Under the pieces are notes generated by a model. That model was not told where the DNA came from. It worked only from the letters and a program-made list of their open reading frames with translations, and did no database searches. This document shows, in pieces, positions 54,009 through 56,083 of a stretch of DNA of 64,000 bases. The translations under genes were made by a program, and so were the position numbers. How positions within the stretch are numbered: the first letter of the stretch is position 1; each line of letters begins with the position of its first letter. The stretch is from Candidatus Eiseniibacteriota bacterium (lineage in GTDB: Bacteria; Eisenbacteria; RBG-16-71-46), in the NCBI GenBank assembly GCA_038231135.1, contig JBBRLX010000005.1:1-64000 (forward strand), in the 5' to 3' direction.

Positions 54009-54452
54009 ATGTCCAGGCACTCGTCCCCGCATCCCAGCGACCAGGCCACATTGCGCAAACTCGTCGAGTTGTCCGCCCGGGAGCGCGCCCGCGTGGCCCG
54101 GCTGCTCGGCGAGATCGGTGAAGTCGAGGCTCGCGGGTTGTATCGATCGGAGGGCTACCCGTCGATGCTGGCCTATTGCGAGTCCCTGAACATGGACGAG
54201 CCCGAGGCCCACATTTGCGCCGCGCGGGTGGCGCGCGAATATCCGAGCGTGTTCGATGCGATCGCCGACGGACGACTGCACCTCGCCGCCGTGGGATTGC
54301 TCGCGCCATTTCTGACGGCGGAAAACGCGGTCGAGCTGTTCGCGGCGGCAACGCACAAGGGAGAATCGGAGATCGAGGCGTTGCTCACGGAGCGGTTCCC
54401 GGGTGCGACGTTCCCGCCGCAGCCCGTTTGGGATGACGACGCGAACAATTGA
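54009..54452 (+). CDS. DUF222-like N-terminal-domain-only paralogue of the downstream HNH protein (possibly truncated)
   Basis: Aligns by eye with the N-terminal domain of 54686..56083 (ARGLY...PSM..YC, AR, LLAP.LT..N..EL.AAA.HK...EIE). Confidence 0.65.
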   Translation: MSRHSSPHPSDQATLRKLVELSARERARVARLLGEIGEVEARGLYRSEGYPSMLAYCESLNMDEPEAHICAARVAREYPSVFDAIADGRLHLAAVGLLAPFLTAENAVELFAAATHKGESEIEALLTERFPGATFPPQPVWDDDANN

Positions 54453-54685
54453 GTTCGGGCCCTCGACGAATTGACTTGACGTCCAACAACGTGGGGTGGC
54501 CGGCGCCGTGTCGCTGCCCCTCAAACTTGGCGCTGCCGCGCCCAGGTCGTGCGCGACAGCGTCGATTGTCTTCGGATGGCTCCGATTCTCGTAACCCTTC
54601 TCTCCAAGCGTCCTCACGAGATCCACGAGCGCGAAATCAGGCGCCGTTAGAATTGAGCTGATGAGCCCCCGCTCACCCAATTCTC

Positions 54686-56083
54686 GTGAGCGACCCCATG
54701 ACCTGGTATGCGCTGTCTCATCTCGCCGACGGTGATATCGCTCGTGAATTGCCGGCCAAATTCGCCCGGGTCTCTCGAAACGATGCCGAGGCGCTCGCGT
54801 GGCTGGCCGAATTCGATGCGCGCCGGTTGTACCTGCCGGCGGCGCATCCCTCGATGCACTCCTATTGCGTGCACGAGATGCACATGGAGCCGGACCCGGC
54901 ATTCAAGCTCATCCGCGTGGCGCGGACGGCCTGGAAGTTCCCGGCCATCTTCCCGGAGCTCGCGGCACAGCACCTGAACCACAGCGCCGTGATCCTGCTG
55001 GCTCCAAGTCTCACGCCGAACAACGTCACCGAGTTGCTGGCGGCGGCCAAACACAAGACCAACGTCGAGATCGAACAGCTGCAGGCGCGGCAGTGCCCGC
55101 GACCCGGAGTGGGCAACCGGGAACTGGGCATTTCGGCGGATACCGATCAACAGGCCGTACGGCCTGTTAAGTTGACATCTGAGCAACAGGCCGCGGGGCA
55201 ACCGTCACTGGAATCGGGTAACGGCGTATTCGAGCAACAGGCCCCGCGGCCTGTTGAGACATCCGCACCGCGCCGCCAGCCCAACTCGCATGAATTGCGG
55301 CACGTGATCGGCGAGAGCAACTTCGACAAGCTGCAGTACGCCAAGTCCCTGGCGAGCCATCGTGCCACTGGGCGGGACGTCGAGGATCTCCTCGGGCAGG
55401 CGCTCGATCTGCTCATCCGAGAGTTCGAACGGCGCAAATTCGGAGCGACCAAGCGGCCGCGTAAGGAGCGTTCGAATTGTTCGAGCGCGAAGCCGCGGTA
55501 CGTTCCAAGACACGTGAAACGCGCCGTGTGGCAGCGGGATCACGGCCAATGCACGTTCACGAGCGAGACTGGCACGCGCTGCCCTTCGCGATCACTCCTG
55601 GAATTCGATCATATTGATCCGGTGGCGCGGGGCGGCGAAGCGACCGTGGCCGGCATGCGGCTACGATGCCGGGCGCACAATCAGTACACGGCGGAATGCG
55701 AGTTCGGCCTCGACTTCATGAAGCGCAAGCGCGAGTTAGCCCGGGAAACGGCGGCGCGAGCGCGTGCGCAGGCCGCCGAGGCAAGAGCCGCAGCCGAGGA
55801 GGAGAAGCGGAGGGCCTCGGCGGCCGCAAAGGAGGCGGCCATGAACCCGGAGCGGGATGTAACGCCCTGGCTCCGCAGGCTCGGGTTCCGCGCCGACGAG
55901 GTGAAGCGTGCGGCGGTGCACTGCGAGACCATCGCTGGCGCCTCGCTGGAGGAACGCGTACGCGTCGGGCTGGCCTTCCTTACGTCGAATCCGGCGAGCC
56001 GACCGCGATCTTCCCCATACCTCAGTACGCGAACCCCGCCTCGCCCATGCGTTTCAACGCCTCCTTCAGCCGGTCGTCGGTGA
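54686..56083 (+). CDS. DUF222-like / HNH endonuclease protein with RuvA-C-like tail
   Basis: RYVPRHVKRAVWQRD.GQC...RC...LEFDHIDPVARGG.....MRLRCRAHN; overlaps the convergent gene by 62 nt. Confidence 0.8.
   Translation: MSDPMTWYALSHLADGDIARELPAKFARVSRNDAEALAWLAEFDARRLYLPAAHPSMHSYCVHEMHMEPDPAFKLIRVARTAWKFPAIFPELAAQHLNHSAVILLAPSLTPNNVTELLAAAKHKTNVEIEQLQARQCPRPGVGNRELGISADTDQQAVRPVKLTSEQQAAGQPSLESGNGVFEQQAPRPVETSAPRRQPNSHELRHVIGESNFDKLQYAKSLASHRATGRDVEDLLGQALDLLIREFERRKFGATKRPRKERSNCSSAKPRYVPRHVKRAVWQRDHGQCTFTSETGTRCPSRSLLEFDHIDPVARGGEATVAGMRLRCRAHNQYTAECEFGLDFMKRKRELARETAARARAQAAEARAAAEEEKRRASAAAKEAAMNPERDVTPWLRRLGFRADEVKRAAVHCETIAGASLEERVRVGLAFLTSNPASRPRSSPYLSTRTPPRPCVSTPPSAGRR
55148..55256. 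repeat. Three in-frame palindromic repeats CAACAGGCC-N4-GGCCTGTT(G)
   Basis: Units start at 55148, 55184 (right arm degenerate) and 55235. Confidence 0.85.

Follow-up and report, generated by a model that had tools for sequence, protein, structure and literature searches.

Why would a protein-coding gene keep near-perfect DNA palindromes in its reading frame, and what reads them? The question is raised by a nuclease gene, P0001, an open reading frame (ORF) of 461 aa at 54698..56083 (forward strand) of the window, i.e. the whole stretch of 64,000 nt analysed here (Candidatus Eiseniibacteriota, assembly GCA_038231135.1, contig JBBRLX010000005.1, positions 1 to 64,000, forward strand). Genes of its family encode a ParB-like helical domain, then a flexible linker, an HNH nuclease domain and, often, a tail resembling domain III of RuvA; the palindromes sit in the linker. 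Judging from sequence, these 22-bp palindromes are very likely a double-stranded binding site of the gene's own protein; the gene, together with a leader of 230 nt, is probably a selfish 1.5-kb unit that would use the site to locate its own DNA and act on it (probability of the two together about 0.6).

In-frame palindromes and the residues that covary with them

An initial annotation of this locus reported three palindromic units in the linker, and all three strings are present and in frame in the 461-aa ORF. Unit 1 (55148..55169, centre GTAC) and unit 3 (55235..55256, centre CCGC) are near-perfect 22-bp palindromes, each with 10/11 pairs; when the same peptides were recoded synonymously with the codon usage of the family, this pairing was equalled in 0 and 1 of 20,000 draws, respectively. 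Eight other 22-mers of the window have 10 pairs, all of them very G+C-rich. Unit 2 did not stand as a palindrome: it pairs at 4/11 positions (P = 0.30), and alignment with three paralogues identified it as a left half-site (55184..55198) whose right half is gone through an 18-nt in-frame deletion. The description of the units as two arms around a variable loop, separated by unrelated spacers, has to be replaced: the unit is a 22-bp palindrome with a centre that is usually self-complementary (CCGG, GTAC, GCGC, CTAG), and the DNA between units is ordinary linker sequence common to the three paralogues. The ‘echo’ of the unit proposed in a short upstream paralogue matches in register, but with 3/11 pairs (P = 0.72) it is at chance level.

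To characterize the family we used 92 genes picked by protein only from 113 ORFs, the remainder being without anchor or having a duplicate linker (one of the 92 comes from genome G038; the claims stand without it). A linker 22-mer with at least 10 pairs was present in 66 of these genes, compared with 2/184 control windows of the same length; 69 genes outdid synonymous recoding at p <= 0.05, and nine had no unit of at least 9 pairs. The number of units per linker varied from 0 to 5, with a single unit in 45 genes, and unit spacing was irregular (12-207 nt; 36 nt in 8/48). At some other loci the units are densely packed: L208, L231 and L189 have stacked palindromes with a 24-nt period (22 plus 2), and L230 has seven units, mostly with a 30-nt period, a local expansion within the linker.

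Across 131 units, pairs 3 to 10 were complementary in 120-131 units, with several pair types at each (for the pair 6-17, TA 58, GC 43, CG 27); compensatory changes were seen at most pairs, the centre included, and no symmetry was found beyond 22 bp. In a set of 112 units anchored on the peptide, which was chosen to avoid selecting for symmetry and takes in pattern-picked loci, 93 kept at least 9/11 pairs, versus 0.8% under synonymous recoding. A peptide kept while synonymous changes break the symmetry, named in the initial annotation among the findings that would refute its reading, was not the outcome; its proposal of selection on DNA or RNA rather than on protein is borne out for the symmetry of the DNA.

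What reads the site could be addressed by covariation between protein residues and bases. The set for this comprised 214 genes out of the 238 non-redundant ones that have a unit (G038 excluded, pattern-picked loci included); the half-site consensus of each gene was scored by mutual information against ∼350 protein columns. The top columns for half-site positions 5, 6, 7, 9 and 10 were residues 69, 73, 66, 96 and 122, respectively. At position 5, T accompanied Tyr69 in 84/86 genes and A accompanied Ala69 in 20/23; at position 6, Gln73 went with T (69/83) and Arg73 with G (52/75); at position 7, Gln66 went with T (14/14) and Asp66 with G (165/166); at position 10, C was found with Lys/Arg122 in 174/179 genes and G with Asn/Cys122 in 14/15.

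On a tree built without the covarying columns, the counts of independent pairs changing in the same versus the opposite direction were 6.8:0 for 122-10 (median p 0.016), 9.4:0 for 73-6 (0.004), 7.5:0 for 96-9 (0.008) and 5.6:0 for 66-7 (0.03); the 69-5 link was not significant among independent pairs on the tree. At all five positions, prediction of the base from genes <65% identical outdid a majority guess as well as all 25 control columns (for 73-6, 143 versus 47 of 204). Residues 66, 69 and 73 share a face of the predicted recognition helix, whereas 96 and 122 are each found where one of two later helices begins; in ParB, contacts with parS are made by the recognition helix and two further helices (PMC7383237, in excerpt). 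Compared by eye, the covarying positions would match those of ParB residue to residue. The base-by-base covariation with helix residues fits reading of a duplex in the major groove. Among the roles proposed in the initial annotation, that of a binding site of the encoded protein is thereby strongly supported, five residues being linked to five bases; we consider it very probable that the N-terminal domain binds the palindrome of its own gene.

The window copy itself has Asn122 (codon 55061..55063, forward strand) and G at position 10 in 4/5 half-sites, whereas its closest full paralogues, L002 and L003, have Arg122, C at position 10 and CCGG centres. What had been seen as variable loops is most readily explained as an ongoing switch of specificity, since the centres differ with this change of residue and base.

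The unit, its ends and lone palindromes

The unit in the window starts with a left boundary motif, GAWTnnnCTTGAC (54468..54480, forward strand, as are all parts listed here), followed by a 5′ leader common to the paralogues (54481..54697), delimited by alignment of paralogue leaders and k-mer counts. The leader contains a -10-like hexamer (54648-54653) and a GCCCCCG motif ∼20-35 nt upstream of the start codon; neither an Rfam match nor a full sigma-70 promoter was found in it. Within the left motif is a hexamer resembling a -35 box, without a -10 at the spacing expected of a promoter; the -10-like hexamer that is conserved lies ∼170 nt downstream. The N-terminal helical domain (54698..55099) has a fold like the DNA-binding domain of ParB/Spo0J/KorB; residues covarying with the palindrome are 66, 69, 73, 96, 99/100 and 122. 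The linker (55100..55297) is disordered (predicted local distance difference test score, pLDDT, <50 at residues 139-194). A conserved two-helix middle domain (55298..55441; helices 206-219 and 228-248) could conceivably have a ribbon-helix-helix-like role in dimerisation. The HNH domain (55496..55705) has its catalytic and zinc-ligand positions intact; its Pfam match is under the cut-off, while the fold matches HNH and the catalytic residues are conserved. The three-helix tail (55847..55990) resembles RuvA domain III, its likeness to RuvA_C being seen by domain search and by fold. Contigs from two runs of one study, possibly the source sample, are identical to the window across 54667-55538.

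Just upstream lies the short paralogue (54009..54452, forward strand), an N-terminal domain only, with 50% identity over 139 aa to the homologue P0004 and a predicted recognition helix that has a gap of two residues. It is probably a truncated older copy. It has its own leader-like sequence, and ∼15 nt separate its end from the left boundary of the full copy; the newer full copy may have truncated the older one. We looked for a downstream remainder of the short paralogue and found none.

The genome has 21 tblastn matches to the family, and the many copies of the unit are located at sites unrelated to one another. Several contigs (C12, C14, C1, C8, C35, C38) end at most ∼60 nt from a linker palindrome; therefore, copy numbers from short reads are underestimated. 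The left end of the unit is well defined: TTGAC is present at -320..-190 in 148/191 genes, ∼225 nt upstream of the start; in close copies identity drops to background ∼10 nt upstream of the left motif, and 10 of 14 matches to this motif in the genome precede a family gene (behind the other four, C1:184340, C3:96319, C4:43672 and C28:47245, no family gene was found). In close pairs the right end is at or close to the stop codon; neither terminal inverted repeats nor target duplications were seen by eye at the ends of such pairs. In 5/5 relatives the 1.5 kb that follow the M16 peptidase gene contain no family gene.

Three modes of insertion were considered. Rolling-circle-like one-ended transposition was rejected: it should leave a ragged right end, and most close pairs lose their similarity at the stop codon or close to it. 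Insertion between the -35 and the -10 of host promoters was also rejected, a -10-like motif after the stop codon being seen in 1/119 loci. Insertion beside a pre-existing palindrome is not supported as a general rule: a strict test found a palindrome at most 200 nt upstream of the left end in 1/104 genes, although four loci of other phyla do show this arrangement.

Some observations concern the surroundings of the units. A recurring sequence of 50-60 nt with internal direct repeats often adjoins the left end, upstream of the left motif (loci L002, L035, L045, L084, L181, L205, L272, L328, L334, L350, L385 and L409; contigs C1, C14, C20, C23 and C25 in this genome); we take it to resemble the end of an IS481-type element. 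A second recurring flank was seen at L131, L226, L261, L292 and L403. Three copies in this genome are internally deleted (C25:29198-29771, C3:158963-159900 and C8:137060-137613); in the C25 copy both deletion ends are only a few bases away from a palindrome, possibly a sign that the DNA broke close to the bound site.

Palindromes also occur apart from the gene. In this genome six intergenic sites have no family gene (on C2, C4, C5:160887, C25, C39 and C41, the last with two palindromes); five lone palindromes are perfect and identical to variants within three other gene subfamilies of the same genome, while the window's own variant has no lone copy there. The two palindromes on C41 (L466, C41:11507-11570) are of different variants and 42 nt apart; the gene just downstream is, as we presume from its translation, cysteine-synthase-like.

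Co-occurrence of site and gene was followed in genomes of relatives by scanning with a symmetric pattern with free positions: of the 44 relatives in which the gene had a strong match, 31 carried the pattern (30/43 without G038), versus 0/16 relatives lacking such a match, kin among these genomes not being independent. Among 75 sites listed, of 143, 64 were perfect at all five free pairs. A wider species collection gave 128 matches in 118 loci, 38 of them with 300-nt flanks only; 55 matches were inside a family gene or close to one, the other 73 were not, 105 were perfect at the free pairs, and eight imperfect ones, from unrelated taxa, seem to be chance hits.

That lone palindromes are the ends of another element was rejected: the flanks of 39 lone sites were unrelated and had no common gene family, with the exceptions of one same-site pair and a few short or distant matches. 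The flanks of palindromes show a mild preference for A adjoining the ends. For the lone site on C4, two relatives have the same gene order and no palindrome; exact empty sites for lone palindromes were not found in the relatives because these are too diverged.

Possible uses of the site and rival explanations

How could such a unit use its site? In the explanation that we prefer, the protein would bind as a dimer, each subunit occupying one half-site in the manner of ParB on parS, and the palindrome probably marks the unit's own DNA for copying. Within the gene, only the linker would tolerate such a site, the fixed frame being inherited by descent, and each lineage would re-tune residue and site together; hence there would be several specificities per genome (four here). 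One could speculate further that the protein is loaded on its own DNA and the tethered HNH domain nicks nearby, that the RuvA-like tail recruits host RuvB, that branch migration or repair then copies the unit elsewhere, and that lone palindromes are by-products or remnants of such copying events. This full chain, a selfish element in which a five-residue code reads an in-frame palindrome, HNH nicks, a RuvA mimic hijacks RuvB, and the unit, needing neither a transposase nor terminal repeats, copies itself and scatters lone palindromes over the genome, we propose tentatively, as one possible course of events. Two features of the window copy weigh against the simple picture. Its subfamily is altered at the nearly invariant Arg71, Gly91 and Leu95; with these changes, and with an ORF that overruns its neighbour (the 3′ 62 nt of P0001 overlap a convergent aminotransferase gene), the copy may be decaying.

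The rival that survives best is an autoregulatory operator: a dimer bound to its own gene, or beside the leader, would block transcription and keep a toxic nuclease low, the unit spreading without help of the palindrome. The same covariation speaks for binding in this case too, the fold is common to KorB-type repressors, and at four loci of other phyla (L063, L095, L128, L132) the palindrome is not in the linker but just outside the left motif, immediately upstream of it. The positions of the sites point elsewhere. In the 214-gene set the sites lie at least 450 nt downstream of the start codon; 297 cognate sites are in linkers (the richest class by construction), 10 in the tail region, 5 upstream and 2 downstream, and none in the N-terminal, middle or HNH domains. 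It appears that the unit needs the palindrome within it or next to it, the exact place being flexible, as would suit a mark for loading or self-recognition and not a fixed cut site. An operator also leaves the exact lone intergenic copies and the multiple specificities per genome unaccounted for; we regard it as the less probable explanation by some distance, bearing in mind that self-directed mobilisation and self-repression are not mutually exclusive.

Alternatively, the palindrome could be a self-mark or antidote, with the nuclease idle while bound to the site and attacking DNA if the site is lost or absent; lone copies would be decoys kept by the host. Such a role would agree with an HNH domain intact in nearly all family copies, and with lone palindromes that match gene variants of the same genome letter for letter and were found only in gene-bearing genomes. 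Against it, the window's variant has no lone copy in its genome; many copies are broken by deletions, suggesting a weak penalty for loss, and PADLOC gave no match for six proteins. We find this role improbable.

Even less probable is action of the palindrome as RNA or single-stranded DNA, either as hairpins cut from mRNA into small guides, as suggested in the initial annotation, or as a site read on a single strand like REP or NTS repeats. Folding of the linker palindrome region is strong (z = -4.5 versus shuffles), the innermost pair is the most relaxed of the internal pairs (99/131), and the lone copies are REP-like. However, the pair 10-13, though it would be located in the loop of a hairpin, covaries (CG 106, GC 15 of 131 units), the innermost mismatches (CA 26, TG 6) have the pattern of CpG transitions, and G-T mismatches (17) are rarer than A-C mismatches (53), i.e. 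not favoured; because of these three features the site type fits a two-fold symmetric duplex rather than an mRNA hairpin, and so does the covariation with helix residues. A guide-RNA array was rejected, as spacing is irregular, single units are common and the spacers are common to paralogues; no Rfam match was found.

Selection on a QxAPxxV linker repeat with symmetry as a by-product of codon choice can be dismissed: one reading frame is indeed common to 131/136 units and Val7 is kept in 92/104 distinct units, but there are 81 different heptapeptides, the wobble base mirrors its partner much more often than codon usage predicts (102 cases versus 19 expected at position 3, n = 104), identical 22-mers exist in non-coding DNA, and the linker symmetry and peptide-anchored tests given above refute it as well.

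Relation to known systems

If the palindrome is the binding site, each copy's candidate substrate can be read from its own sequence with a residue-to-base table, and, since every gene brings its own site along, the family amounts to a library in which nature has paired DNA-binding domains with targets, of use for studying how specificity evolves. A compact 22-bp targeting scaffold is a possible use; should the selfish-element reading be true, the natural variants would be a ready library of re-programmable 22-bp-specific nucleases. The RuvA-like tail suggests a specific way in which such a unit could move with no transposase. The matter is of some breadth, as ∼760 stretches with DUF222-HNH-like repeated genes are estimated in the species collection; we know of no substrate or way of moving for such genes.

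The family is probably a relative of these. Like the REP13E12 / DUF222 (PF02720)-HNH genes of mycobacteria, it consists of multicopy dispersed genes with a helical N-terminal domain and a C-terminal HNH domain; weak DUF222 matches were present in 31/96 homologue N-terminal domains (best E 1.2e-4), and one look-alike cluster in the Atlas is 42% DUF222. P0001 differs in having no DUF222 match at E 0.1 and in carrying the RuvA-like tail. In an excerpt of PMC10589994, REP13E12 is named merely as an unexplained repeat class; neither a cognate palindrome nor a fold or mechanism for the DUF222-HNH family was found in the literature searched.

ParB-parS, Noc-NBS and KorB-OB have a similar DNA-binding fold and a palindromic duplex site, which here is predicted. 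In Bacillus a parS site is found within spo0J, a precedent for an intragenic position. A few residues set specificity in ParB-type proteins as well (PMC7383237, in excerpt). The three have an N-terminal CTPase domain that P0001 is without, its ParB-like domain being aligned from about residue 8; no Pfam ParB match was found in P0001 and no ParA neighbour. Here, in contrast to those systems, there are a fusion to a nuclease, a 22-bp site, and many copies and many specificities per genome.

Pairing of a short dispersed palindrome with a dedicated nuclease gene is known from REP/RAYT (REPtrons; PMC3733652, in excerpt), where RAYT is an HUH enzyme cutting single-stranded, GTAG-tagged hairpins that flank its gene. 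In the present family the nuclease is HNH, the near-perfect palindrome is inside the gene and lone copies are few (six sites in this genome); an HUH tyrosine transposase is not among the P0001 domains, and GTAG/CGTC tags were not seen, the palindrome flanks being unrelated. Ssn nucleases differ in specificity, each recognising an NTS/SRM repeat of its own (PMC11893778, in excerpt), and are GIY-YIG enzymes, single-strand specific, with hundreds of repeat copies; here we have HNH, a ParB-like reader of the duplex and an intragenic site, with no match to a GIY-YIG domain in P0001.

Likeness to other systems is more remote. CRISPR- and TIGR-like arrays have regular repeats and unique spacers of fixed length, whereas here the spacing varies and spacers are common to paralogues. 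Free-standing HNH homing endonucleases are likewise selfish HNH genes; they cut sites missing from their own allele, while here the site sits inside the gene. The HNH domain is similar to that of IscB, with an IscB score of 19-25 bits versus a cut-off of 175 and no RNA found. We found no description of the intragenic palindrome in the open-access literature searched, main texts being the scope. In sum, the recognition is like that of ParB-parS and the pairing of nuclease with palindrome is like that of REP-RAYT or Ssn-NTS, and the family is a member of none of these systems.
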